A stretch of 39,320 bases of DNA, taken from the IMG/VR virus record IMGVR_UViG_3300045988_148041, positions 1 through 39,320 of that record; one strand, given 5' to 3'. Positions 5,218 through 39,320 of the stretch are shown piece after piece. The position numbers and the translations under genes were made by a program. Numbering within the stretch: position 1 is the first letter of the stretch; every line of letters begins with the position of its first letter. The notes below the pieces were generated by a model. It did not search any database. It was not told the DNA's origin and was given only the letters and a program-made list of their open reading frames with translations. The stretch is from a virus.

Positions 5218-5637
5218 TTACATCACTAACCCCATAAGGCGCTCGAACTCTTTTTCACCTGCTTGGATCATACGAATAGCTGTCCTTCTGCTCGCTCCTA
5301 CCTCGAATTCAATGTAACTCACACTGCGATTTTCAATGTGGCGTAACTCAATAGCTTTGCGTTCCGATGGCATATCGATGTTCATTAACTCCAATGCTTT
5401 CTCCACCGCGGCCACCTCTAAATTAAGAGCCAACTGGGTCATTCGCATTTCTTCCTTTTTCTGCAATCTTTTTTCGTACTGATCATAAATATCAGCTCTC
5501 GCCCCTGGAATTTCATCCGTGATTTTAGAAATCTTAATCTTGGGAATTTCTAAATAATCTAGCTGAGATTGAATCATCTCAACTCTTTGCTTTTTGTGCT
5601 TGTAATCTTTCAGAATTTCGACCGCCTTTACCCCCAT
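5218..5637 (-). CDS. ArpU-family (sigma region 4-like) phage late transcriptional regulator
   Basis: 139 aa. Lies upstream of the HNH and terminase genes. C-terminal HTH RKAIELRHIENRSVSYIEFEVGASRRTAIRMIQ resembles sigma-70 region 4. Confidence 0.55.
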   Translation of the reverse strand: MGVKAVEILKDYKHKKQRVEMIQSQLDYLEIPKIKISKITDEIPGARADIYDQYEKRLQKKEEMRMTQLALNLEVAAVEKALELMNIDMPSERKAIELRHIENRSVSYIEFEVGASRRTAIRMIQAGEKEFERLMGLVM

Positions 5638-5767
5638 CGAATAATTCCTCCTTTGCCATTTCTAAATATTTATGAATTACTTTAAAATCATCTTTGCTAA
5701 CCTCACCACGTTCAACCAAACTGTACAATATTATTTGCATCTTTGCGATTGAATTAAGATTATTCAC
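5579..5767 (-). CDS. hypothetical small protein
   Basis: 62-aa ORF that overlaps the ArpU-like gene start. Confidence 0.3.
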   Translation of the reverse strand: MNNLNSIAKMQIILYSLVERGEVSKDDFKVIHKYLEMAKEELFDGGKGGRNSERLQAQKAKS

Positions 5768-5782
5768 TGTTCACCCTCCGAT

Positions 5783-6385
5783 TTACATAGCATATTCGCA
5801 GTTACATCCTTCTTTTCCAACTTCCACCATGTCACACACCGGCGGAATGAAATGATTTTCTAAAAAGTCGCGCAATTTACAATCACTTCTGTCTTTGGTG
5901 CATCCTCTACATTCTGCATATAATTTCCCATCAACCAAACTGAACAGTTCTTCAATCGTTAACTGAACATCGCCTAGTTTGTTGACCATTCTTTCTAACT
6001 TTTTAATTTGATAATCGTCAGCCACACGCAACTCCCACTTCATCATCTTCTTAGCAATAGTTTCCTTAGCTTTACGGTCTAGATTGTCCTCTATAAAGCT
6101 AGTCAAGAATTTTCGTTGGTACGTTGTCGCCATCTTTAAGTATTTGATTTGCTCTTTGGTAATCATTCCGCTTTTTTCAAATCTCTCCCACATCGGAACG
6201 CCATCTCCCTTTTCGTGTAGCGATCTTATTCCCATCATCAGTTGATGAGTCGCCGATAGCATAATGATTAAATTTTGCTCATCTTGATTAAGGTAACCCC
6301 TTCTCACTTTTTTTTCTCGCACGTTAATTCCATCTTTATACTTCATGAATTGTTTTTTCATAATTAAGCTCCTTTTCTTCCCCAA
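5783..6385 (-). CDS. hypothetical protein with a C-terminal Cys cluster
   Basis: 200 aa. C-terminus CRGCTKDRSDCKLRDFLENHFIPPVCDMVEVGKEGCNCEY. Confidence 0.45.
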   Translation of the reverse strand: MGKKRSLIMKKQFMKYKDGINVREKKVRRGYLNQDEQNLIIMLSATHQLMMGIRSLHEKGDGVPMWERFEKSGMITKEQIKYLKMATTYQRKFLTSFIEDNLDRKAKETIAKKMMKWELRVADDYQIKKLERMVNKLGDVQLTIEELFSLVDGKLYAECRGCTKDRSDCKLRDFLENHFIPPVCDMVEVGKEGCNCEYAM

Positions 6386-7242
6386 TTTAGGCGTTTGATG
6401 CGGTGGTTAACCGCACCCCAACTTCGTCCTAATTCTTCTGCTATTTCTTTTTGCGTGTACCCTTTGAAAAATAAATCTAGCAACACCTTGTCCTCGCGTG
6501 GCGACCAATAATTAATTTCCTTATACGACTCACCTTGACGGTCTTTTTTTAACTTTTCTTCAAACCATTCAGGGTTTTTTTTATTTTTTTGCAAAAAAAT
6601 GTTTACCGTTAACTTTCTAGAGTCCCACAATTCTTGATTATCGCGAAGGAATTTGATGATCTCTTTCTCTTTAATGCAGTATGTTTTTCTCTTCAAAGAC
6701 CGGTTTTTCTTTGCGACTAAACCATATTTATTAATGAATACGCAAACCCTGTGCTTGCTGACGCCTAACAAATGAGCTAACTCTGTAGCCGTATATCCGT
6801 CACCAACTCGCGTGCCCAACCCTTCTTCAGACGCTTTCTTCAATACCGCTTCTTCTGAGCGATTAATCATTTCAGCAATCACTTTTGGTTTTTTTATTCC
6901 CCACCATTGGTGTAGATATTCAAGTTCTTCATCTGACCAAAACACGCGACGTTTCACACCTAACATAGTAGCCCTATGTTTTATTGCAGTTCTAGTCCTA
7001 CCTAACTTTTCTGCTAATTCATCTAAATTCGCTGTTGCATACTCTTCCCGTATGATCGCTAACTCGTCTTCTGTCCATATATCATCACGCTTAGTTAGTC
7101 CAAGATTGCAACACTTTTTTTCAACCGCTTTTTTGGTTCTTCCAAAACGCTCCGCGATTTCTTCAATCGCCATGCTACCATAATTAGCTTTCAGAAATTC
7201 ATATTCCTCAATAGTCCAAATACGTCCTCCTGCCACGTCCAA
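6364..7242 (-). CDS. DNA-binding protein with five tandem HTH repeats (Myb/SANT- or sigma-R4-like)
   Basis: Five repeats of the pattern W-x-EE-L-x(8-12)-IAE-LGR-x(3)-A-x(3). Examples: WTIEEYEFLKANYGSMAIEEIAERFGRTKKAV, WTEDELAIIREEYATANLDELAEKLGRTRTAI, WSDEELEYLHQWW..., WSPREDKVLLDLFFKGYTQKEIAEELGRSWGAV. Confidence 0.5.
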   Translation of the reverse strand: MDVAGGRIWTIEEYEFLKANYGSMAIEEIAERFGRTKKAVEKKCCNLGLTKRDDIWTEDELAIIREEYATANLDELAEKLGRTRTAIKHRATMLGVKRRVFWSDEELEYLHQWWGIKKPKVIAEMINRSEEAVLKKASEEGLGTRVGDGYTATELAHLLGVSKHRVCVFINKYGLVAKKNRSLKRKTYCIKEKEIIKFLRDNQELWDSRKLTVNIFLQKNKKNPEWFEEKLKKDRQGESYKEINYWSPREDKVLLDLFFKGYTQKEIAEELGRSWGAVNHRIKRLNWGRKGA

Positions 7243-7270
7243 TCCCCCTTAAAATCTACCTTCTATTTAC

Positions 7271-7699
7271 TTAAAATGGTAACTCTGAGTCACCTATATT
7301 AATCGCTGATGCGGTTGCACTCATGCCCCAATCGTAATTCGCATATTGATTTTGTTGCTTTTGTTCAAAGCGAACTTCTGCTACTGTTTTTTCTTGTTGT
7401 CTGGTACCTAAAAATTCAACCTCATTAGCAATAACTTTTGTAAATGAACGTTTTTGACCGTCTTTTTCATAGTTTTCAACTGAAATTCGTCCATTTACTG
7501 CGATTTGACTACCTTTAGATTGGAATTTAACTAAATTCTCTGCTGTTTTCCCCCACACTTGCACTGGGATGAAATCTGCGCCATCATTTCCGTACTTATT
7601 AACCGCTAAATTGAATTGGACCACTGATTTACCGTTAGTTGTTTGTTGCATGTTTAAGTCGTTGCTGATACGACCAATTAAAGTTACGTTATTCATCAC
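7271..7699 (-). CDS. ssb: single-stranded DNA-binding protein
   Basis: OB-fold N-terminus MMNNVTLIGRISNDLNMQQTTNGKSVVQFNLAVN, Q/N-rich linker, acidic tail DSELPF. Confidence 0.8.
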   Translation of the reverse strand: MMNNVTLIGRISNDLNMQQTTNGKSVVQFNLAVNKYGNDGADFIPVQVWGKTAENLVKFQSKGSQIAVNGRISVENYEKDGQKRSFTKVIANEVEFLGTRQQEKTVAEVRFEQKQQNQYANYDWGMSATASAINIGDSELPF

Positions 7700-8112
7700 A
7701 TTTCCTCCAATGGAATTAATTTTATTTTTGCTTCTTCTGTTTCACCATAAAACTTCTTAACCTCTAGCTCAACGATCTGCTTATCATCGCCGTATGCCGC
7801 CCCGTTTAGGGCATCTAACAATGACTTTGCTAAGTTATCAGTATCAGGCGTCACCATAGGGCGTATATAACCCTCTAATTTGCGTTTTTTTACTAACTTG
7901 CTATCTGACTTAGGGACTTTCATAAAAACCTCAATTTCGGCACGTATTGAGCATTTTAGTGGCTCCCATTTATAAATGTCGATGTAGTCTTGGTAACAAC
8001 TCTTTACAAATCTTTCATAATCTACAGTCGGTTTTGGTGTGTACGTTCTACCGTTTGCAAATCGAGGTCTTTGCTTTGCCTGAACCTTCCCTGGAATTTT
8101 AAACTCTCTCAT
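7696..8112 (-). CDS. rusA: RusA-family Holliday junction resolvase
   Basis: MREFKIPGKVQAKQRPRF...YTPKPTVDYE...PDTDNLAKSLLDALNGAAYGDDKQIV matches the RusA signature layout. Confidence 0.8.
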   Translation of the reverse strand: MREFKIPGKVQAKQRPRFANGRTYTPKPTVDYERFVKSCYQDYIDIYKWEPLKCSIRAEIEVFMKVPKSDSKLVKKRKLEGYIRPMVTPDTDNLAKSLLDALNGAAYGDDKQIVELEVKKFYGETEEAKIKLIPLEEM

Positions 8113-15380: not shown

Positions 15381-15563
15381 ACAAAAGGACTCCCACAAAA
15401 GTTTAACCAAAAATAGAATAAAAGGGTTGAAAATTGGTTAAAATGATATTATAATTACAAACGAACTTAATAAAAAGGTCATTAATTACGTTTGTAATTA
15501 ATTTATATTTTCTTTCGCTATTAGACTTCCACTCGGCTGCCAAACTTTGTGGGAGTCTTTTCA
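15381..15563. promoter_or_regulatory. regulatory region with nested inverted repeats
   Basis: AAAGGACTCCCACAAAAGTTT (15383-15403) is the near-reverse complement of AAACTTTGTGGGAGTCTTT (15543-15561). An inner 9-bp inverted repeat TTACAAACG...CGTTTGTAA (15448-15492) sits between them. Confidence 0.4.
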
Positions 15564-15611
15564 TTTACTAAAAAGAATGTTATCAAATATTGTCACAAAT
15601 TACAATAAAAA

Positions 15612-15675: not shown

Positions 15676-16278
15676 TTATCTAATAAATGTATACTTCAAG
15701 TTAGAGAAGTTGCTCCAATCAGGTTTTATCCATATGCACCCGATATCAGGTTTTTTCTCGCACACCGATACCAAACACATCGGATGTTGCATTTTATATC
15801 GTCCTGCTTTCAAATCGTTATATAGACGATTATATGCATCTGTGTTAGTGAATGGCTTTGTTAAATCTATCTCAACGAGTGCGCAATAGGTTTCATCACC
15901 GTACTTAAAAGTTACCAACATATCGGGTCTGATATGGTATCTTTCCTCCAACTTCTTATACTCTACCTCGGTTTCATCTAGTATGATTTCGAAACCATCG
16001 ACTTTCATCCTGCTTAAAAAATCAGTCATCATCAATCTATGTTTAGTTTTGGTTGGATTTTTGCCGATGTAGTAAATATAAGATTGCCCCACGTACTCGC
16101 GCACTCTATGGACTTGTTTTTGGTGCTTGATGATCTCTTGCGTTCTCTTGTGCGCAACATTTAATGATGATTTCTCATTACGTGTCCAGTAAATCAATCG
16201 TGAAGCTATTTGTGCATTTAAGATAAAGTTTTTTTCCAAATATCTGATTAACTCTAAATCTCTAGTTGTTAACCCCAT
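15676..16278 (-). CDS. Replic_Relax (replication-relaxation) family protein
   Basis: N-terminal winged helix LTTRDLELIRYLEKNFILNAQIASRLIYW...SLNVAHKRTQEII. C-terminal nuclease-like RPDMLVTF..CALVEIDLTK. Overlaps the upstream FtsK-like gene by 17 nt. Confidence 0.6.
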   Translation of the reverse strand: MGLTTRDLELIRYLEKNFILNAQIASRLIYWTRNEKSSLNVAHKRTQEIIKHQKQVHRVREYVGQSYIYYIGKNPTKTKHRLMMTDFLSRMKVDGFEIILDETEVEYKKLEERYHIRPDMLVTFKYGDETYCALVEIDLTKPFTNTDAYNRLYNDLKAGRYKMQHPMCLVSVCEKKPDIGCIWIKPDWSNFSNLKYTFIR

Positions 16279-17467
16279 AAATTAACACTTCCCCTTTTAA
16301 ATTGCTCATTTTCGGCTCATTTTTAGGCTTTTCGACTTCGGTAGTAGTTTTAACAACAGATGGTTTTTTCGAGGTTCTAACGGTCTTTAAATGGTCTTTA
16401 ATGATGTTTTCAACGTCATCGTCAGATGTTATTAGCGTTTGCCCTTCTTGAATTTGCCCACCTAGACTAAATAATGCCCGTCCTTTAGCTGCTAATTTTT
16501 CTGCTCCCGGTTGGTCTAGTATCACGCTAGAGTTAACAGAATCGACTGTGTGAAAACAAATTCTATTATCGATGTTAGCTTTAATTCGTGAGTCGATGAT
16601 TTTAGAGTCAAAGCGTTGGCTTGTGAAGATATAGAACACTCCAACAGCGCGACTAATGGCTAGCGACTTAATAAGTGTCGTTTTCAAATCTTTGCTTTGA
16701 TCAATCAAAATTGTGAACTCTTCTATGATGACGAATTTCGGTTTTATTTTTTTATCATTATTTTTATTATGATCCAACCAATTTTTGGAGTCTGAGTCGT
16801 TGATTATATTCAATCTATCCTCTATCTCAGTGTAAATTCTATTAATCTCCGTCTCTGCCTTATCAGGTGCAATAGTGAATGAATTGGTTTGTCTAATTCT
16901 TTTGAATGAATTTAATTCAACCCCACCTTTGAAATCGAATAATTCAAATTCACTTTCAGGATAGTTGATTAATATTTGTAAAATTAAACTGGTCAGAAAT
17001 ACCGATTTCCCCCATCCTGTCGCTCCCGCAATTAGAGTGTGGGGCATCGAAACGAAATCAAGTGTAATCCCTTTAAAATCGCCATTCTCTACGCCTATTG
17101 CGGCTGCTACTTGCATCCCAGGTCTATCATTTGTAATGACTTTATCAAAAGGTATGCTCGAAGGTAGTTTTTTTGTTTCTTCTTTTAATTTTATAAAGTA
17201 ATTAAAATTATTATTGATGATCTCAACTTCACTTTTAACGATATTTTCAATTTTCCCTTTTAAATCTTGTAGGTCTTTGAAACTCTTACCGTTGTTTAAT
17301 CCTATTCCGTATGTTTTCGTTTTTCTGTCGTGAAATTTGATGTAACCTATCCCCTCTAGTAGTTGACTCAACGGTGATGACATATCTTTAATCCCTCCAC
17401 CTAATTCCGATAATTTTAAAGCTCCTAACATAACCGTACCAATCGCCCAAGGCATCCACCATACCAT
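16262..17467 (-). CDS. FtsK/SpoIIIE-family membrane-anchored DNA translocase-like ATPase (TcpA/TraB-like)
   Basis: N-terminal TM helix WWMPWAIGTVMLGALKL. Walker A GATGWGKSVFLTSLI. Walker B KFVIIEEF. RBS GGAGG 7 nt before the ATG. Confidence 0.75.
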   Translation of the reverse strand: MVWWMPWAIGTVMLGALKLSELGGGIKDMSSPLSQLLEGIGYIKFHDRKTKTYGIGLNNGKSFKDLQDLKGKIENIVKSEVEIINNNFNYFIKLKEETKKLPSSIPFDKVITNDRPGMQVAAAIGVENGDFKGITLDFVSMPHTLIAGATGWGKSVFLTSLILQILINYPESEFELFDFKGGVELNSFKRIRQTNSFTIAPDKAETEINRIYTEIEDRLNIINDSDSKNWLDHNKNNDKKIKPKFVIIEEFTILIDQSKDLKTTLIKSLAISRAVGVFYIFTSQRFDSKIIDSRIKANIDNRICFHTVDSVNSSVILDQPGAEKLAAKGRALFSLGGQIQEGQTLITSDDDVENIIKDHLKTVRTSKKPSVVKTTTEVEKPKNEPKMSNLKGEVLIYGVNN

Positions 17468-17558
17468 AACAAAACCTCCAAATGTTTAATTATTAGTAAG
17501 TAATTGGTCATTGGAGGTATTTTTATGTAATTTTGTTTTGCGTGTATAACCAAATATT

Positions 17559-17640
17559 GGAGCGCGAACGGAATTACTTTTTCTCCGTCCCCCCGGAACG
17601 CTCGTTCCCACTCGCTCCCCCCTTTTAATGCGCTTCGCTT
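17559..17640. other. GC-rich, C/G-tract island in an AT-rich intergenic region (possible structured RNA or operator)
   Basis: GGAGCGCGAACGG...TCCGTCCCCCCGGAACGCTCGTTCCCACTCGCTCCCCCC. Inverted repeat GGAACG-CT-CGTTCC. Outer GGAGCG/CGCTCC. Two C6 tracts, which are G6 on the minus strand. Confidence 0.3.
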
Positions 17641-17768
17641 TTTGTGGCATTATCAAGGTTTTTGGCTATTGGTTTCGTGGTTTATCGCTTATACTCAACT
17701 TACTGCTGACCAATACTTAACTTATAGTAGATTATATGAAGTTTGGTGTAAGTTAGTACCAAGAGTTT

Positions 17769-18311
17769 TCAATTTCTCGAATTAATTTTTTGGAGTAGTT
17801 GTGATCCGTCTACTAGCTGCACTTTGCTGAGCCTTGCTTCTTGCCTAGCGTCTTCTGTGAACTTAGATGTAGTGACAAAAATCGCTTCGGCGTTGTGAGG
17901 ATGACACGCACCAACTAACTTTTGAACCAAAGGTCTCCCGACAGCATTAGATTGGGCGAATTGTTTGCATTCTACAAAGTAAGTTTTAGTCCCTTTGTAC
18001 ATCACAAGATCTTTACCACCATCACCACTTTTGCGTGTCTGAAGCACGGTGTACCCTTGCGATTTATAGTAATCAGCTACCACACGCTCGAATTGATAGG
18101 GATTGACCTTCATTAAATCGTTCATCGTCATTCTTGAATATGGTTTTTTGAATATATTTTTAAAATCCTCGCCTGATAGATGAATTGCCACTGTCGCTAT
18201 CGCGATGATCAGGAACATCATAATAACAGTAGGATTGAGTATTTTCCCGAAGGTTATGATCGTAAATAAAATTAAAATTGCTTTGACTGTTTTTTTGCTC
18301 ATCAGCATCAC
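17769..18311 (-). CDS. membrane-anchored Mrr-type (PD-(D/E)xK) restriction-endonuclease-domain protein
   Basis: Two N-terminal TM helices (ILILFTIITFG, IMMFLIIAIATVAI). Mrr_cat-like core NPYQFERVVADYYKSQGYTV...GDGGKDLVMY...YFVECKQF. Confidence 0.6.
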   Translation of the reverse strand: MMLMSKKTVKAILILFTIITFGKILNPTVIMMFLIIAIATVAIHLSGEDFKNIFKKPYSRMTMNDLMKVNPYQFERVVADYYKSQGYTVLQTRKSGDGGKDLVMYKGTKTYFVECKQFAQSNAVGRPLVQKLVGACHPHNAEAIFVTTSKFTEDARQEARLSKVQLVDGSQLLQKINSRN

Positions 18312-18375
18312 CTATCGTTAGGATCGCCAAAAAAAGAGCGGATTATACACAATAGAATCCTGTTTTTAGATGCAA

Positions 18376-18404
18376 ATAAAAAAAGACTTGGAATAACCAA
18401 GTCT
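18376..18404 (-). terminator. intrinsic terminator of the parMR operon
   Basis: On the minus strand: AGACTTGG-TTATT-CCAAGTCT followed by TTTTTTT. Confidence 0.7.
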
Positions 18405-18618
18405 ACCAGTCTTTTTCTTTAAATAGATCCTTTGTTTCTTGTGGCACATTGAATGCGTCCTCTTTGATGTTGCCACTTACTTTATCAGCTAACGTTGTTA
18501 AAATAAAAGAAGTAAAGTTGCGTTTGTCAGCTTTAGCTGCTTCCTCGATAGCTTGTAACAACGCTTCGTCACCTTCATAAAAAGTGATCGTCTTTTTAGC
18601 AATTATTTTACGCGCCAT
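18403..18618 (-). CDS. parR: ParR-like ribbon-helix-helix partition adaptor
   Basis: 71 aa. Beta-strand KTITFYEGDEAL then helices LQAIEEAAKADKRNFTSFILTTLADKV. Lies immediately downstream of parM. Confidence 0.5.
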   Translation of the reverse strand: MARKIIAKKTITFYEGDEALLQAIEEAAKADKRNFTSFILTTLADKVSGNIKEDAFNVPQETKDLFKEKDW

Positions 18619-18622
18619 ATTA

Positions 18623-19585
18623 TTACCCCTTTTTGATCAATGTGTATTTATAGAATCCTCTTGCATTCGCGATTTGTGCTTCGGGATAAACTATCGCATT
18701 TGAACGTAATTTTATGTGATTTTTAATAGCCAAAGCTCCACCACCAGTATAGATAATTCTGTCATAGTGTGCTAAATTAATCCCACTTCGTCTGATAACA
18801 GTTTCTAAGGCTGATACGAAGTCTGTTTTAACTAAATCTAATTCTTCGGTGAAATCAAATGTTTCGCCGTATTTATGAATAATTGGCGAGATATCATCGC
18901 TCACATCGTTATGTGTAAAATGATAATCAGTCCCTTTGTATTTGTTGTTCATTTCACGAACTAAATCATTTACGATATCCATACAACCAGTGTCGTCACC
19001 TGCTAATTTCTCGACTTGCAACCCATTTGTGGCAAGTATATCCGTAGTTGAGTAACCAATATCAATCACAACGTAATTGAATTTGTTACGGTTGTTAACG
19101 ATTTGCAGTTTTTCATTGAAAACGAAGTCACATAGAGTCCCTAACGGCTCACACGCAACGAAAACATCTTGGATATTGATGACATATTCCTCAACAACAT
19201 CGTCAATTATAACGTTTATTGCATGGCGGCCAGTCAATTTTTTAACAATCTGTTTCTTTAGGTCGATTTTTTCAAAGTCCCTGCAAGGAACTCCAATAGT
19301 TAATGATACATTGCGCTCAGTGATGACCTGAGTAATCGCGATTAATAATTCTAAAAGATATTCTTTGCTTAAATAACGGTCAGAGCTACGTCCACCACTA
19401 CTGATCCCCGTTGTATCTAAAGTATATTGTTTCCCTTCATATTCATAGATTGTCCCAATACCACCTACGATATTAAATTCGCTTCCTGTCAAACGTTTTA
19501 ATTTGTTAGGGTATGTCAACTCTGTGTCATTGGATACAACTTTAATGAAGCCGTTTGCAACCTCTAGTCCTATTTTTTGACTCAT
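18623..19585 (-). CDS. parM: ParM/StbA-family actin-like segregation ATPase
   Basis: Phosphate-1 motif IGLEVANGFIKVV. Phosphate-2 motif VVIDIGYSTTDILA. Adenosine motif YTGGGALAI. Confidence 0.7.
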   Translation of the reverse strand: MSQKIGLEVANGFIKVVSNDTELTYPNKLKRLTGSEFNIVGGIGTIYEYEGKQYTLDTTGISSGGRSSDRYLSKEYLLELLIAITQVITERNVSLTIGVPCRDFEKIDLKKQIVKKLTGRHAINVIIDDVVEEYVINIQDVFVACEPLGTLCDFVFNEKLQIVNNRNKFNYVVIDIGYSTTDILATNGLQVEKLAGDDTGCMDIVNDLVREMNNKYKGTDYHFTHNDVSDDISPIIHKYGETFDFTEELDLVKTDFVSALETVIRRSGINLAHYDRIIYTGGGALAIKNHIKLRSNAIVYPEAQIANARGFYKYTLIKKG

Positions 19586-19589
19586 TTTC

Positions 19590-19860
19590 GATTCCTCCTT
19601 AAACTCTTTCTAGTACATATTATGTTGCTATTTTAAAAAAATCAACCACTTTCTGTTTTTTTCTTGATAAAAACTTCTATTTTCAGTTTATATAAGAAAA
19701 AATAAGTCAATAACTAGATTATATACTTATGAAAAATAGTTATTATACGTATATAAAAAGGTTTTAACTATAAAAAATAAGAAAAAAACTTCTAAAAGAA
19801 GGTATCTTATGGTTATCCTCTGCATATAATGTACTAAGAAGCAAATGAAAGGGGAAATGC
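19590..19860. promoter_or_regulatory. AT-rich divergent control region (candidate parC centromere plus promoters)
   Basis: Reiterated TATATA(A/C) and AAAAATA(A/G)G words. TGcATATAAT at 19821-19830 precedes the plus-strand operon. Confidence 0.3.
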
Positions 19861-21368: not shown

Positions 21369-22121
21369 TTAGCTATGAAATTTTTTGGTTTCTGATGAAT
21401 ATAAGATAGGATTTTTCGTTAAACCACAAGAATATACTTTATTGCATAATATTGATAAATAATCATCCACTGAACGTTGTCGTGTTATATTAGGTAAAAA
21501 TTGTTTAATTTTACGTTCCATTTGTGAATGATCGTATCCCTCTTTAAAGAATAATCTTGAAAAAGCCGTGATAAAATGGCTTTGCTTGTAGTTTCTAAAT
21601 TCATGGAACGATTCGAGGGCCATAAAAAATAATACCACAGAATCTAATCCATCTAACGACACTGCGCCTGTTCTAAATTCTCGTTTCAGTTGCGGTATAT
21701 TTTTTTCTTGAACGACAGATAATATCTTTAGAAAATCATTAATACTTATATCGAAATCGTTTGTGATTTCTGCTATTTTTAGATACTTCTCTTCTTTTAA
21801 TTCGCAATAGCGGTGAAGATAATCTGCATCATACCAACGTCTTCCACCATTAACATTAGCTCTTATTACGTCATCAATGCTATATCCATTCTCCATAATA
21901 TAATAGACGGGTAATTTCAAATATTCACACGCCTTAAATCTATGTTGACCATCGATAATTTCAAATTTTTCATTTACTGTAATTGGAATGATTAACTGTT
22001 TCTCCTTCATACTCTCAATTATTTGATTAAGATTCGTTGGATTTGTTCTTCTGTTTCCGCCCATGATTTTAAACAATGAGTAGTCGTTTGTTTTCATTAC
22101 ACTTGTGTAAACTTCAATCAT
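21369..22121 (-). CDS. ParB/Sulfiredoxin-like nuclease-domain protein with a DGQHR motif (DndB-like)
   Basis: EIIDGQHRFKACEYLKLPVYYIM. Confidence 0.55.
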   Translation of the reverse strand: MIEVYTSVMKTNDYSLFKIMGGNRRTNPTNLNQIIESMKEKQLIIPITVNEKFEIIDGQHRFKACEYLKLPVYYIMENGYSIDDVIRANVNGGRRWYDADYLHRYCELKEEKYLKIAEITNDFDISINDFLKILSVVQEKNIPQLKREFRTGAVSLDGLDSVVLFFMALESFHEFRNYKQSHFITAFSRLFFKEGYDHSQMERKIKQFLPNITRQRSVDDYLSILCNKVYSCGLTKNPILYSSETKKFHS

Positions 22122-22650
22122 ATTTGTACCCTCCTGTAATATACCACTTTCTATAATCTTTTCTTTTACAATCCTTGCATTGATTCAAGTGACCGTCTTT
22201 CATGCCTTTGTTTTTGTTAAATTCGGACAGCGGTTTAGTTTCTCCACATTTGTTGCATTTTTTTGTTGCTTCTGAAATGGTTGCTTCTGAAATGGTTGCT
22301 TCTGAAATGGTTGCTTCTGAAATGGTTGCTTTCCTTTGGTTATAAGCATCTTTATACTTTTTTGCGCAAAACCTACAATAAGATTTAACGCCACTTTTGC
22401 TTTTTTTGTGTTTATTAAAGTAACTTAAAGGCAAGATTGTTTCGCATTGCGAACAAGTCTTGTAACCAGCAGGAGCTACGTCGTTGATTATCGGCCTTTT
22501 TAAGTTCAATTCACTTGCTTTAGTGTAGATCGATTTAATATCTCTTTCTAAAGCGTTCGATATTTCTTTTGTTGTGAACTCTGAACTTTTATATGCATAA
22601 CGCAAAAAAACAATCTCTTCTTCAGTCCATAATTTTCGCTTTTTTTCCAT
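22114..22650 (-). CDS. zinc-ribbon repeat protein with an ATISE pentapeptide tandem repeat
   Basis: Two CxxC-x(20-25)-CxxC modules (CSQCETILPLSYFNKHKKSKSGVKSYCRFC and CNKCGETKPLSEFNKNKGMKDGHLNQCKDC). N-terminal HTH-like WTEEEIVFL. The ATISE repeat is encoded by a 15-bp tandem repeat. Confidence 0.5.
   Translation of the reverse strand: MEKKRKLWTEEEIVFLRYAYKSSEFTTKEISNALERDIKSIYTKASELNLKRPIINDVAPAGYKTCSQCETILPLSYFNKHKKSKSGVKSYCRFCAKKYKDAYNQRKATISEATISEATISEATISEATKKCNKCGETKPLSEFNKNKGMKDGHLNQCKDCKRKDYRKWYITGGYKYD
22265..22330. repeat. 15-bp tandem repeat (GTTGCTTCTGAAATG), 4.4 copies, inside the CDS
   Basis: Read directly from the sequence. Confidence 0.9.
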
Positions 22651-36277: not shown

Positions 36278-37503
36278 CGAAACTCGCTACATTTCGCCCG
36301 TTCTCTTATGAACTGCTATACATTACTGCATAGATTAGACTATATCACCAACTCTTTTCAGAGTGCCTCCCATTTCCATCCGCTTGGATGTACGTCATTT
36401 GACTAGTCGTTGAACCTTATTAATCTTTCAAGAAGTTTTCCAACTCATTCGTTATTTTATTTGTTCGCAACCACCAATAGGGTATTCTAAGCAACGGAAT
36501 TTGCTTGTTTTTACAGTACTCGTTTTTAATAGCATCTCTTCTTAAAATCCCGGTTCTATCGCCCTTTCCCCAATTTTTAGCATTAGTGAAATGTTGCGAA
36601 CCATCGAACTCTATTAGTTTTAATGTCCCGTTAACGAAAACTGCAAAATCAAACTTCAACAACGCTTTGTCCTTGCAATCTTCGAACGTGTATTGTGGTT
36701 GAAAAACGTATTGTTTTGAAGTTAAAAAATCAAAAATAAATAACTCACCTTTTGAATACATACATTTTGGGCACCTTATTTCCTTCAGTAGATCTTTAGG
36801 GATGACATCCCATTCATAGCCACATTTATGTCGTACTAAAATTTTAGTGCGATTATTAATGTATTCTCCCAACACTTCATACTCTCCTGGGTATTTTTTT
36901 GCCAGTGCCTGTATAAATAATTGTGTGTCTTTCATTCCGTGACATATTGGGCAGCCACTACCACGAACCACGTTCCCTGCAATAGCTTCGTATTCGTGTC
37001 CACAAACGTTGTTTTTAATCTTTATTTTATGCCTTAACCCTAAATATTCCCCGATAACTGTAACATTTACATTGTTGTCGGATAGCCTTTTTTGGTAGGT
37101 TTCTAAGCTGTTAACCTTTGTCGCACTGATCCTTTTGGCTCTGCATTTTGAACATAGCTGACCATTCAATAGTTTAATCGGCGCTTTCTCGTCTATATGC
37201 CCACAATTTGAATATTTAACAGCAACTTTGTTCTTGTTCCCTGTGTAATTGGTGAGTATTTCTACTTTATCTCCATAAAGTTCTTTAACTTCATCTAAAA
37301 ATTCTCCATGAGTTTTTCTTCTTGTCATCAAACCACTCCTTGTTGTTTATATTATACCAACTTTAGACAATATAATTCAACATTGGAACGGTTAAAGATT
37401 AATCTTGGCTGCTGATTGTCCTTAATTGCTCATGTTAAGGAGTTTCCAGCAATTAGAGAGGTTTCCATTCAAGCGTCACCACTTGACGGCGCAATCGTTA
37501 CGA
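36278..37503 (-). mobile_element. group I intron (IA-like, phage type) interrupting the major capsid gene, carrying a homing-endonuclease ORF
   Basis: Conserved core elements are readable on the minus strand. P-like AATTGCTGGAAAC (plus 37442-37454). Q-like AATCAGCAGCC (plus 37407-37417). R GGTTCAACGACTAGTC (plus 36401-36417). S GGTGATATAGTCTAA (plus 36334-36350), with GACTA/TAGTC P7 pairing. The last intron nucleotide G precedes the exon 2 codon AAT. Exon 1 ends ..GTATGG. Confidence 0.7.
36420..37331 (-). CDS. intron-encoded homing endonuclease: three zinc-ribbon repeats plus a C-terminal DUF559/Vsr-like PD-(D/E)xK nuclease domain
   Basis: Three repeats CGHIDEKAPIKLLNGQLCSKC, CGHEYEAIAGNVVRGSGCPIC, CGYEWDVIPKDLLKEIRCPKC. 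C-terminus FDFAVFVNGTLKLIEFDGSQHF...ILRRDAIKNEYC..PLLRIPYW. RBS AAGGAGTGG. Confidence 0.6.
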   Translation of the reverse strand: MMTRRKTHGEFLDEVKELYGDKVEILTNYTGNKNKVAVKYSNCGHIDEKAPIKLLNGQLCSKCRAKRISATKVNSLETYQKRLSDNNVNVTVIGEYLGLRHKIKIKNNVCGHEYEAIAGNVVRGSGCPICHGMKDTQLFIQALAKKYPGEYEVLGEYINNRTKILVRHKCGYEWDVIPKDLLKEIRCPKCMYSKGELFIFDFLTSKQYVFQPQYTFEDCKDKALLKFDFAVFVNGTLKLIEFDGSQHFTNAKNWGKGDRTGILRRDAIKNEYCKNKQIPLLRIPYWWLRTNKITNELENFLKD

Positions 37504-38339: not shown

Positions 38340-39239
38340 TTAAAAATAAACGCCAAATTGTTCCCAATTAACGACTGGCATAACTGTAGTTCTACAATTG
38401 GGGTGGAATGGCGGGTAGTTTTTTCCGACTACTGCTTCATTTAGCTTAAACGTGCGATTTTTAGGCTCACACTCTACCCAGCCTTTGCATATCTTAGATG
38501 TCCTTTTGTCTAAATGAGCTAATATCTCATATTTCTCACATACACCACTATCTTTATAACCTTGTAAATGCCCTTGATTAACCGCATAGTTAGTTTCAGT
38601 TCTAACGAGCCTTTCTGCCTGATAATAATATTTTACGCCTAAATCTTTTTTAAGCCTTCTAGCTGTTTTTTGAATACTGTCACCACGCACTATCGCCGTA
38701 GTTAATTCGTTTTCAATCCATTTGCACAAAGCATCTTTATTATCCCACACACTGTCTGCAAACATCTTCCCGTGATATGGATAATTGATAATCGCTTCAA
38801 GCGCTGCTGTGTGAATGATAGGTTGCATAACCCCAAGTAATTGAGCAACCTCCCCGTGTCCATTAATAACTAAATTTGTCATTGTATCTCTTAGCGTTGT
38901 TTCGAACTCATGCGACAACTTTGACATTTCAATGTTGATTTTATCATTAAGTGCCTGAAGCCTTGTCACTTTCAACCTTGCGTTTAATTTGTCAATTTCA
39001 CGTTTGAGTCGTTCATTGCCACTATCTTGATAAAGAGCCTTTAAATCAGCTATCCTTTGATTATATTCGTTAATCTCAATAGGCGTTAACACTTGCGTTG
39101 CCGTTGTGTAATCAATCTTATTGTCAGTAGCATACTTGATTATAAATTCATTAATATCTGCACTAATCGCATCTGAAGCTCTTTTATAGGCATTTTTAAG
39201 TTCTTTTAAAACTTCTTGCTCGTTTTTTTTGTTTTGCAA
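38340..39239 (-). CDS. head morphogenesis / minor capsid protein (SPP1 gp7, Mu F-like)
   Basis: 299 aa with a TTG start. C-terminal Cys pairs. Lies immediately downstream of the portal gene across the circular junction. Confidence 0.65.
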   Translation of the reverse strand: MQNKKNEQEVLKELKNAYKRASDAISADINEFIIKYATDNKIDYTTATQVLTPIEINEYNQRIADLKALYQDSGNERLKREIDKLNARLKVTRLQALNDKINIEMSKLSHEFETTLRDTMTNLVINGHGEVAQLLGVMQPIIHTAALEAIINYPYHGKMFADSVWDNKDALCKWIENELTTAIVRGDSIQKTARRLKKDLGVKYYYQAERLVRTETNYAVNQGHLQGYKDSGVCEKYEILAHLDKRTSKICKGWVECEPKNRTFKLNEAVVGKNYPPFHPNCRTTVMPVVNWEQFGVYF

Positions 39240-39320
39240 ATCAATTTCTTTTGCTCGTTTTTCCCAATATACAGGGGAAGAAAGCTTCCCCCAATATTTC
39301 TCATCTTTAAGGTTGATAGA

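Follow-up and report, generated by a model that had tools for sequence, protein, structure and literature searches.

A predicted membrane-anchored Mrr_cat nuclease and its conserved FtsK-like and Replic_Relax gene neighbours in a probable phage-plasmid

Several described systems offer points of comparison for the gene that is the subject of this work, a small gene encoding a predicted membrane-anchored Mrr_cat nuclease in a 39,320-nucleotide stretch of viral DNA (positions 1 to 39,320 of IMG/VR record IMGVR_UViG_3300045988_148041; hereafter the window). SNIPE is an inner-membrane nuclease with one or two N-terminal helices that cleaves phage DNA during injection; it is a single-gene system in which a GIY-YIG nuclease is combined with a required DUF4041 domain, whose binding partners are the tape measure protein and DNA (PMC13190303). 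HerA-NurA is an archaeal pair consisting of an FtsK/HerA-superfamily ATPase and a nuclease (PMC3326311), and DUF4297-HerA is a defence complex whose proteins activate each other on assembly (PMC11291478). The family PF13814 (Replic_Relax), which has been placed in the PD-(D/E)xK superfamily (PMC3424549), comprises MOBC-type relaxases that are paired with FtsK-like (TcpA) coupling proteins in Firmicute mobilisable elements (PMC5357655). In Bacillus phages, FtsK and 'replication-relaxation' genes adjoin partition systems, and their function is unassigned (PMC9658697, PMC11526630, PMC3853050).

The nuclease of the window has the catalytic fold and the E...D...(E/Q)xK motif in common with the Mrr/Mrr_cat type IV enzymes, MspJI and AspBHI, but in place of a Mrr_N winged-helix or an SRA-like modification-reading domain it has a two-helix anchor. 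Whereas the Mrr type IV enzymes stand alone in the chromosome, the gene for this 177-residue protein is linked to FtsK-like and Replic_Relax genes. The likeness to SNIPE lies in the concept of tethering, in which membrane location selects the DNA to be cut, with the helices here being predicted; the nuclease differs in that neither GIY-YIG nor DUF4041 gave a match in Pfam or PADLOC, and in its three-gene neighbourhood. As in HerA-NurA and DUF4297-HerA, a nuclease gene lies beside the gene of a hexameric pump ATPase of the same superfamily; however, the nuclease here is of the Mrr_cat type without a DUF4297 or NurA match, both proteins are predicted to be membrane-anchored, a Replic_Relax protein is added, and a complex between them is conjectural. 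The modules of TcpA/FtsK-like and MOBC/Replic_Relax proteins (PMC5357655; CloDF13 MobB/MobC, cited in PMC3424549) have an identical composition and the same FtsK-relaxase order, but the genes described here lie in a tailed-phage genome, beside a cytoskeletal partition locus, and with a membrane-anchored Mrr_cat nuclease. We found in the papers searched neither a TcpA/MOBC module with such a nuclease nor a description of a partnership of nuclease, FtsK-like and Replic_Relax proteins beside cytoskeletal partition loci. Our findings lead us to favour, with about even confidence, the reading in which the nuclease is the membrane-tethered member of a conserved three-gene cassette (Mrr_cat, FtsK-like and Replic_Relax) within a plasmid-maintenance block.

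The nuclease coding sequence is located on the minus strand at 17769..18302 and encodes 177 residues, with a likely start at ATG 18302 and the stop codon at 17769-17771. The open reading frame as listed extends over 17769..18311, and the alternative start GTG 18311 would add three residues and falls within the Shine-Dalgarno sequence AGGTGA (18313-18308). Because this sequence is positioned 5 nucleotides ahead of ATG 18302, the ATG is the likelier start, in agreement with the length of a 100%-identical database protein (P0001, 'MAG TPA: Restriction endonuclease [Caudoviricetes sp.]'), which also has 177 residues.

Residues 3-42 (18177..18296, minus strand) form a predicted N-terminal hairpin of two hydrophobic helices connected by the turn K20-I-L-N-P24. 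The hydropathy profile has peaks at residues ~8-19 and ~25-40, an AlphaFold2 model with a whole-model mean predicted local distance difference test (pLDDT) value of 82 places helices at residues 3-19 and 24-42, and both hydrophobic segments, together with a K-x-(G/N)-(G/P) turn, are kept in alignments of 20 and of 46 homologous sequences. The proposal of two N-terminal transmembrane helices, made in an earlier reading of this DNA from its letters alone (the sequence-only reading), is thus upheld, the membrane location being a prediction. According to the positive-inside rule, the basic flanks MSKKTVK and FKNIFKKPYSR suggest that both ends of the hairpin lie inside (N-in/C-in) and that the Mrr_cat domain is cytoplasmic. 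The hairpin is followed by a flexible linker, residues 43-59 (18126..18176, minus strand), of low pLDDT, which falls below 50 at residues 47-53.

The Mrr_cat PD-(D/E)xK domain covers residues ~64-171 (17790..18113, minus strand) and was recognized by Pfam, alignments, AlphaFold2 and Foldseek. The match to PF04471 (Mrr_cat) has an E-value of 1.1e-28 and a score of 100.1 bits against a cut-off of 21, extending over profile positions 2-113 of 115, and the motif GDGGKD...VECK is present. Of the catalytic residues, E72 (codon 18087-18089, minus strand, as for those that follow), D94 (18021-18023), D98 (18009-18011) and K113 (17964-17966) are invariant in both alignments, and E111 (17970-17972) is conserved in at least 90% of the sequences, being Q in haloarchaeal members. 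The Mrr_cat core that had been read from this motif therefore stands, and its consensus is not a catalytically dead one. Across the domain the pLDDT is ~90 and the model shows the alpha/beta fold of restriction endonucleases. The best structures retrieved with Foldseek were AF1548 (1y88, E 2e-06), MspJI, AspBHI, Hjc and Cdn1/Can2; when the nuclease family profile was searched against PDB sequences, no match at E<=0.01 was obtained, and these relatives are reached via fold comparison only. Taken together, sequence and model predict a catalytically competent, non-specific-looking Mrr_cat DNase that would be held on the cytoplasmic face of the membrane by a two-helix hairpin.

Mrr_cat was the sole domain found in the 177-residue protein in Pfam and PADLOC, which revealed no sensor or DNA-recognition domain. 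The matches in PADLOC, PHROGs and NCBIfam concern the nuclease domain alone or families of unknown function, and the PHROG labels read 'restriction endonuclease' or unknown. Several memberships were considered and rejected. The PADLOC matches to PDC-S02, ZorD and mREase_IV are limited to the nuclease domain, that is, to the C-terminal ~120 residues, in profiles 317-1171 positions long. Hjc (PF01870) scored 17.4 bits against a cut-off of 21.1, a likeness at the level of the fold only, and YraN/UPF0102 appeared as a secondary or sub-threshold overlapping Pfam match. A further secondary match, to NA-iREase1 (PF22722; 32.8 bits, cut-off 27), would be in line with a catalytically inactive scaffold or regulator with an NA-iREase1-like fold. 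The same residues, however, fit Mrr_cat far better (100 bits), and E72, D94, D98, E111 and K113 are all present and conserved; NA-iREase1 membership was rejected, and an inactive protein is the least probable explanation that we weighed, one to which we give hardly any credence.

The evidence that the nuclease belongs to a cassette comes from its neighbourhood. In all close nuclease lineages examined, an FtsK-like gene and a gene for a Replic_Relax-like protein (RR in the gene orders below) of ~200 residues are found alongside, usually near a partition locus with an actin-like protein (ALP) or TubZ, and this three-gene neighbourhood is kept from ~80% down to ~25-35% identity. In the phage lineage of 80% identity (loci L001-4) the order is ALP-ParR-Mrr-FtsK-RR, and in the lineage of 54% (L005-8) the ALP gene is divergent. 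The lineage of 44% (L009-13) consists of ~12-kb elements integrated in Turicibacter chromosomes, with the order Mrr-ALP-x-FtsK-RR, and in that of 35% (L014-15) Mrr is followed by two genes on the opposite strand and then by FtsK-RR. Other arrangements are Mrr-FtsK-RR-ALP (L017), ALP-x-Mrr-FtsK-RR with a RepA_N gene further downstream (L134-135), and RR and FtsK divergent from Mrr and then ALP (L138); in L023-24, the nuclease has 38% and the RR protein 74% identity. Phage c-st of Clostridium botulinum has CST191, which combines Mrr_cat with a membrane helix region, between the FtsK-like CST193, with CST194, and TubR/TubZ, and on a 139-kb plasmid of C. tetani a Mrr_cat gene is divergent from FtsK-RR, 3 kb from ParM. 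The trio thus stays together in at least four gene orders, and also when TubZ takes the place of the actin-like partition system. This conserved synteny contradicts the view of the gene as a stand-alone unit expressed in the sequence-only reading, whose placing of it between partition and ATPase genes is correct: the ALP pair is found at 18403-19585 and the FtsK-like gene at 16262-17467. In locus L009, of the integrated type, a stretch of 1.4 kb upstream of the nuclease gene (6564-8000 of that locus) has no called gene.

The linkage was also examined in the reverse direction, starting from Replic_Relax. Among the metagenome loci anchored on Replic_Relax that had enough flank (n=13), the nuclease was found in 11, in a position upstream of FtsK or else right after RR; one locus in this test has the order ALP-x-FtsK-x-RR-Mrr-RepA_N, and L128, with RR alone, is an exception to the linkage. 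Searches by tblastn with the Replic_Relax-like protein gave 0 phage matches and 1 plasmid match, few because this family diverges fast, and the scans of viral contigs yielded only 2-4 loci. Pairwise identities over nine lineages were correlated between the three proteins, with Mantel r values of 0.80 for Mrr-FtsK (p=0.002), 0.70 for Mrr-RR (p=0.004) and 0.92 for FtsK-RR (p<=0.004). The linkage of nuclease, FtsK and RR is therefore tight within the clade and is not universal or obligatory in either direction.

The FtsK/SpoIIIE-like ATPase of the window (401 residues; 16262..17467, minus strand) matches PF01580 at 4.5e-16, contains the Walker A motif GATGWGKS and the Walker B motif FVIIEE, and has one N-terminal hydrophobic helix, MVWWMPWAIGTVMLGALKL, that is conserved in the clade. 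Against the PADLOC defence profiles, its ATPase domain gave matches to SspH (4e-29) and mad8 (1.5e-26), a similarity at the domain level only. The third conserved member of the cassette, the Replic_Relax-like gene (200 residues; 15676..16278, minus strand), overlaps with its start the end of the FtsK gene. Its product has an N-terminal region resembling a helix-turn-helix (HTH) and a core of the PD-(D/E)xK type, in which H80, R117-P118-D119, E136, D138 and K141 are invariant among seven close members (signature PD...ExD..K). PF13814 matches seven of the eight members of this family, with a best E-value of 1.5e-06, and the copy in the window gave no match at E<=1; the 200-residue protein is placed in a divergent branch of Replic_Relax. 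Adjoining this gene, positions 15400-15570 of the window (~25% GC) are a very AT-rich stretch that may serve as a plasmid origin or operator; they contain a 31-nucleotide inverted repeat with imperfect arms (15441-15471 / 15481-15511) and are flanked on the other side by a gene for a 137-residue protein whose homologue in L002 carries HTH_36.

We infer the partnership of the three proteins from synteny, co-divergence and architecture, and physical interaction, co-transcription and activity are putative. The cassette reading is supported by the N-terminal membrane helices predicted on both the nuclease and the ATPase and by the finding that no terminator separates their genes. The nuclease is probably part of an uncharacterised machine for DNA handling or exclusion. 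In such a machine, partner proteins would choose the targets of the nuclease, because the 177-residue protein lacks any domain for recognition or sensing and a DNase left unregulated at the membrane would be dangerous. By analogy with HerA-NurA or DUF4297-HerA, a hexameric FtsK-like pump situated beside the nuclease in the membrane may feed it double-stranded DNA ('pump-and-cut'), and the Replic_Relax protein may be what recognizes, in a sequence-specific way, the DNA of the element itself. The outcome could be the exclusion of incoming or competing DNA at entry or superinfection, or else the processing of the element's own DNA in mobilisation or segregation; of the two, we regard exclusion as slightly likelier. 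Judging from the sequences compared, the cassette seems to form part of the backbone for the plasmid state, with its partition locus and Rep-type genes, in phage-plasmids of the Turicibacter and Clostridium type and in small integrated elements.

Several observations weigh against this reading. A promoter-like box in the 300-nucleotide spacer between the nuclease and FtsK genes could indicate separate transcription of the FtsK operon, and residence in a block expressed in lysogeny could yield linkage without functional partnership. FtsK-like proteins occur in 394 phage records, mostly of Bacillus phages, and a nuclease homologue in only 7 phage records; conversely, more distant proteins with transmembrane helices and Mrr_cat (TM-Mrr_cat) were found without FtsK. 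Finally, locus L125 has an ALP-ParR-FtsK-RR backbone with ~65% FtsK/RR identity to a nuclease-bearing element and lacks the nuclease, and no remnant of a decayed nuclease gene was found in it. Right after its Replic_Relax gene, at 5314-5877, this locus encodes a lipoprotein of the Ltp family (PF07553, 'Host cell surface-exposed lipoprotein', E 7.9e-50), which is where L127, L129 and L131 have the Mrr_cat gene. Ltp is a family that we take to be one of superinfection exclusion (phage TP-J34).

This arrangement is one of the observations that favour a stand-alone nuclease for superinfection exclusion or defence, in which the tether alone would limit the DNase to membrane-crossing DNA, so that injected phage DNA or incoming plasmid DNA is cut, and in which the adjacency to partition genes would merely reflect expression in lysogeny. 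The transcription signals upstream of the gene can be read in the same sense. An intrinsic terminator at 18384..18404 (minus strand), made up of AGACTTGG, the loop TTATT and CCAAGTCT followed by T7, ends the operon of the ALP and ParR-like genes upstream of the nuclease. It is followed by a promoter-like stretch at 18342..18375 (minus strand), with a perfect TATAAT -10 box (18347-18342) after TGTG and with TTGCAT at 18375-18370; the spacing of 22 nucleotides between TTGCAT and TATAAT is non-canonical, for which reason the stretch, a consensus match only, was unreported by a consensus scan. Moreover, Mrr_cat domains are used mostly in restriction-type enzymes (type IV enzymes, ZorD and the PADLOC candidate PDC-S02), SNIPE shows that membrane localisation can discriminate between self and non-self (PMC13190303), and distant TM-Mrr_cat genes are found on plasmids beside toxin-antitoxin, restriction-modification and ABC-three-component genes.

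We nevertheless consider a nuclease acting by itself unlikely. It has no sensor, no tape-measure-binding and no DNA-recognition domain, whereas SNIPE needs DUF4041; the PADLOC matches span only its nuclease domain; and its gene co-diverges with FtsK and RR like a part of the backbone, unlike swappable cargo. A DNase tethered to the membrane and left unregulated would, besides, come into contact there with the DNA of the host and of plasmids. Nor was the gene established as a monocistronic unit with a terminator of its own, as had been proposed, since the sole intrinsic terminator found near it is the upstream one that ends the partition operon, and the scan detected none in the 300-nucleotide spacer before the FtsK-like gene. 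The nuclease may have a role in superinfection exclusion or defence, and for a role in abortive infection, the other effector function suggested by the sequence-only reading, we found no specific support; families of superinfection exclusion (including Ltp) or abortive infection gave no match to the nuclease in Pfam, PHROGs, NCBIfam or PADLOC.

The spacer between the nuclease and FtsK genes (17468..17768, 300 nucleotides, minus strand) is itself conserved. Right after the nuclease stop codon it contains the box GGTACTAACTTACACC at 17760-17745, followed by TATAAT at 17736-17731 (minus strand), with many invariant columns, and this combination is a candidate promoter or operator of the FtsK and RR genes. 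Further on, at ~17633-17583 (minus strand), a G-rich non-coding element, GCGCATTAAAAGGGGGGAGCGAGTGGGAACGAGCGTTCCGGGGGGACGGAG, stands out in the AT-rich genome. In an alignment with six related loci the mean column identity of the spacer is 73%, with 1-nucleotide indels in the G runs, and the pattern is found in eight of 13 loci (L001-L008), among them those of a lineage in which the identity of the flanking proteins is only ~54%. An open reading frame of 56 residues in the G-rich element was rejected as coding because the relatives differ by these 1-nucleotide indels. Rfam gave no RNA family anywhere in the window, and the fold of the G-rich element was not significantly better than those of shuffled sequences (z = -1.5). 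The element could be a protein-binding site, an oriT/clt-like site, a leader or a G-quadruplex.

The identity of the partners leads to another explanation, in which the FtsK-like and Replic_Relax proteins are a pair of coupling protein and MOBC relaxase, or a pump at the septum or forespore, and the nuclease is an accessory of this transfer or segregation module. At the pore or septum, it would then act on the DNA of the element itself by cutting or resolving it, for example so as to end transfer or to resolve trapped or multimeric DNA. PF13814 is the MOBC relaxase family and FtsK-like TcpA is typical of Firmicute mobilisable elements (PMC5357655); the L009-type element, with integrase, Rep-like, ALP, FtsK and RR genes, resembles a mobilisable element, and the cassette sits with RepA_N and partition genes. 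Distant TM-Mrr_cat genes are, in addition, embedded in conjugation or establishment operons: on an Aeromonas plasmid such a gene lies 12 nucleotides after traN, in Priestia it overlaps a DUF3991/TOPRIM primase gene near a MobP2 relaxase, and on Bacillus plasmids such genes are near a relaxase or topoisomerase. The nuclease also has weak structural and sequence similarity to Hjc resolvases, but the Hjc match is under the Pfam threshold. The window, however, lacks conjugation pore genes, no known transfer system requires a second membrane nuclease, and the FtsK-RR backbone persists without the nuclease in L125. We judge this explanation to be improbable as a whole; it overlaps with the own-DNA-processing version of the cassette reading. 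The confidences that we attach to the five explanations weighed here overlap in the same way and do not sum to one.

A bolder form of the cassette reading, which we put forward only tentatively, is that the three genes constitute a previously undescribed membrane 'pump-and-cut' exclusion system of phage-plasmids. In it, double-stranded DNA that arrives at the membrane or lies against it would be engaged by the membrane-anchored FtsK-like motor, the Replic_Relax protein would use sequence to mark or spare the DNA of the element itself, and the tethered Mrr_cat nuclease would cut the DNA threaded past it by the motor. If this is true, the resident plasmid-prophage would be shielded from superinfecting phages and competing plasmids, and a function would be given to many unexplained FtsK-like genes of Firmicute phages. 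A membrane-tethered defence that cuts DNA at entry has been shown only recently, in SNIPE; the nuclease described here is a different and much smaller one with the same tethering logic. Its association, near partition genes, with a pump of the FtsK type and a relaxase-like protein suggests a testable three-protein machine and offers a handle on an annotation puzzle, that of the FtsK/SpoIIIE-like and 'replication-relaxation' genes in Gram-positive phages and phage-plasmids (PMC9658697, PMC11526630, PMC3853050).

Beyond the clade, the Mrr_cat domain is ordinary, and the architecture of anchor plus Mrr_cat is widespread though uncharacterised. The nuclease family profile retrieved 15,249 clusters (50% identity) at E<=1e-10, and ~39 of the best 150 clusters are short proteins with full-length matches including the hairpin. 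The nuclease matches 1,746 plasmid records, mostly conjugative, a count dominated by pOXA-48 clones. The pOXA-48 homologue WP_004187392 (4854-5441 of locus L133; NZ_CP124826.1 22632-23219) has 195 residues, with one membrane helix, a poly-arginine stretch and Mrr_cat, and its gene lies ~1.7 kb upstream of genes for a tyrosine recombinase, ParM, a ParR-like protein and a PLD-type Nuc. Like CST191 of phage c-st, it resembles the nuclease of the window in combining one or more N-terminal helices with Mrr_cat in ~170-220 residues near a ParM or TubZ locus; it differs in its single helix and in having no FtsK or Replic_Relax neighbours, and the identity of such plasmid and phage genes is only ~27-31%. 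We found no reported function for either protein, and recent Tn-seq and CRISPRi studies searched for functional data on the pOXA-48 homologue contained none. Homologues of the nuclease are thus found on clinically important plasmids (pOXA-48) and in the botulinum-toxin phage c-st.

The window is a circular assembly in which bases 1-99 are identical to 39222-39320, an assembly overlap, so that the true genome has 39,221 bp; its GC content is 36.5%. It contains a complete siphovirus genome, with portal, large terminase, tape measure and head morphogenesis genes and DnaD- and DnaC-like replication genes, as well as genes of plasmid type, namely those for an ALP/ParM protein with a 71-residue partner, the FtsK/SpoIIIE-like ATPase, the 200-residue Replic_Relax protein and a Xer-like tyrosine recombinase. 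With siphovirus and plasmid-type genes in one genome and with close relatives of the nuclease annotated in Turicibacter, the element looks like a Turicibacter-type phage-plasmid. A nucleotide search with a 7-kb region gave no match in phage and plasmid collections, which therefore hold no annotated close relative.

The intact active site, and the frequency of toxins in plasmid stability regions, would also be compatible with a lytic-cycle or toxin role, in which the nuclease degrades host DNA or, on release from the membrane, serves as a toxin for abortive infection or post-segregational killing. We regard this as very unlikely. No antitoxin-like partner was found, the gene is situated in the maintenance block away from the early lytic genes, the nuclease persists stably in chromosomal elements of Turicibacter (indexed in 305 assembly-collection blocks), and a permanent membrane tether fits local rather than bulk action.

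The partition pair next to the nuclease gene (18403..19585, minus strand), recognized by Pfam and synteny, consists of the ALP/ParM-type gene at 18623-19585 and the gene for the 71-residue adaptor-like protein at 18403-18618. The actin-like protein matches ALP_N (5.8e-11) and MreB-like_C (1e-07), and the two genes keep their synteny in related loci. Positions 19600-19860 of the window, upstream of the ALP gene, are of 18-24% GC and contain direct repeats (19686-19715 / 19761-19790) and several inverted repeats; this region, between divergent transcription units, may be a centromere-like parC site. At 21369-22650 (minus strand), on the same lysogeny side, a gene for a 250-residue protein with weak ParB_N / GmrSD_N similarity overlaps one for a 178-residue cysteine-rich (zinc-ribbon-like) protein; a gene homologous to the former is present in L001, and the two may form a second DNA-binding or nuclease pair. 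Among the head-morphogenesis genes, at 36420-37331 (minus strand), the window contains an open reading frame for a 303-residue HNH/homing-endonuclease-like protein (phrog_559, E 1e-73).

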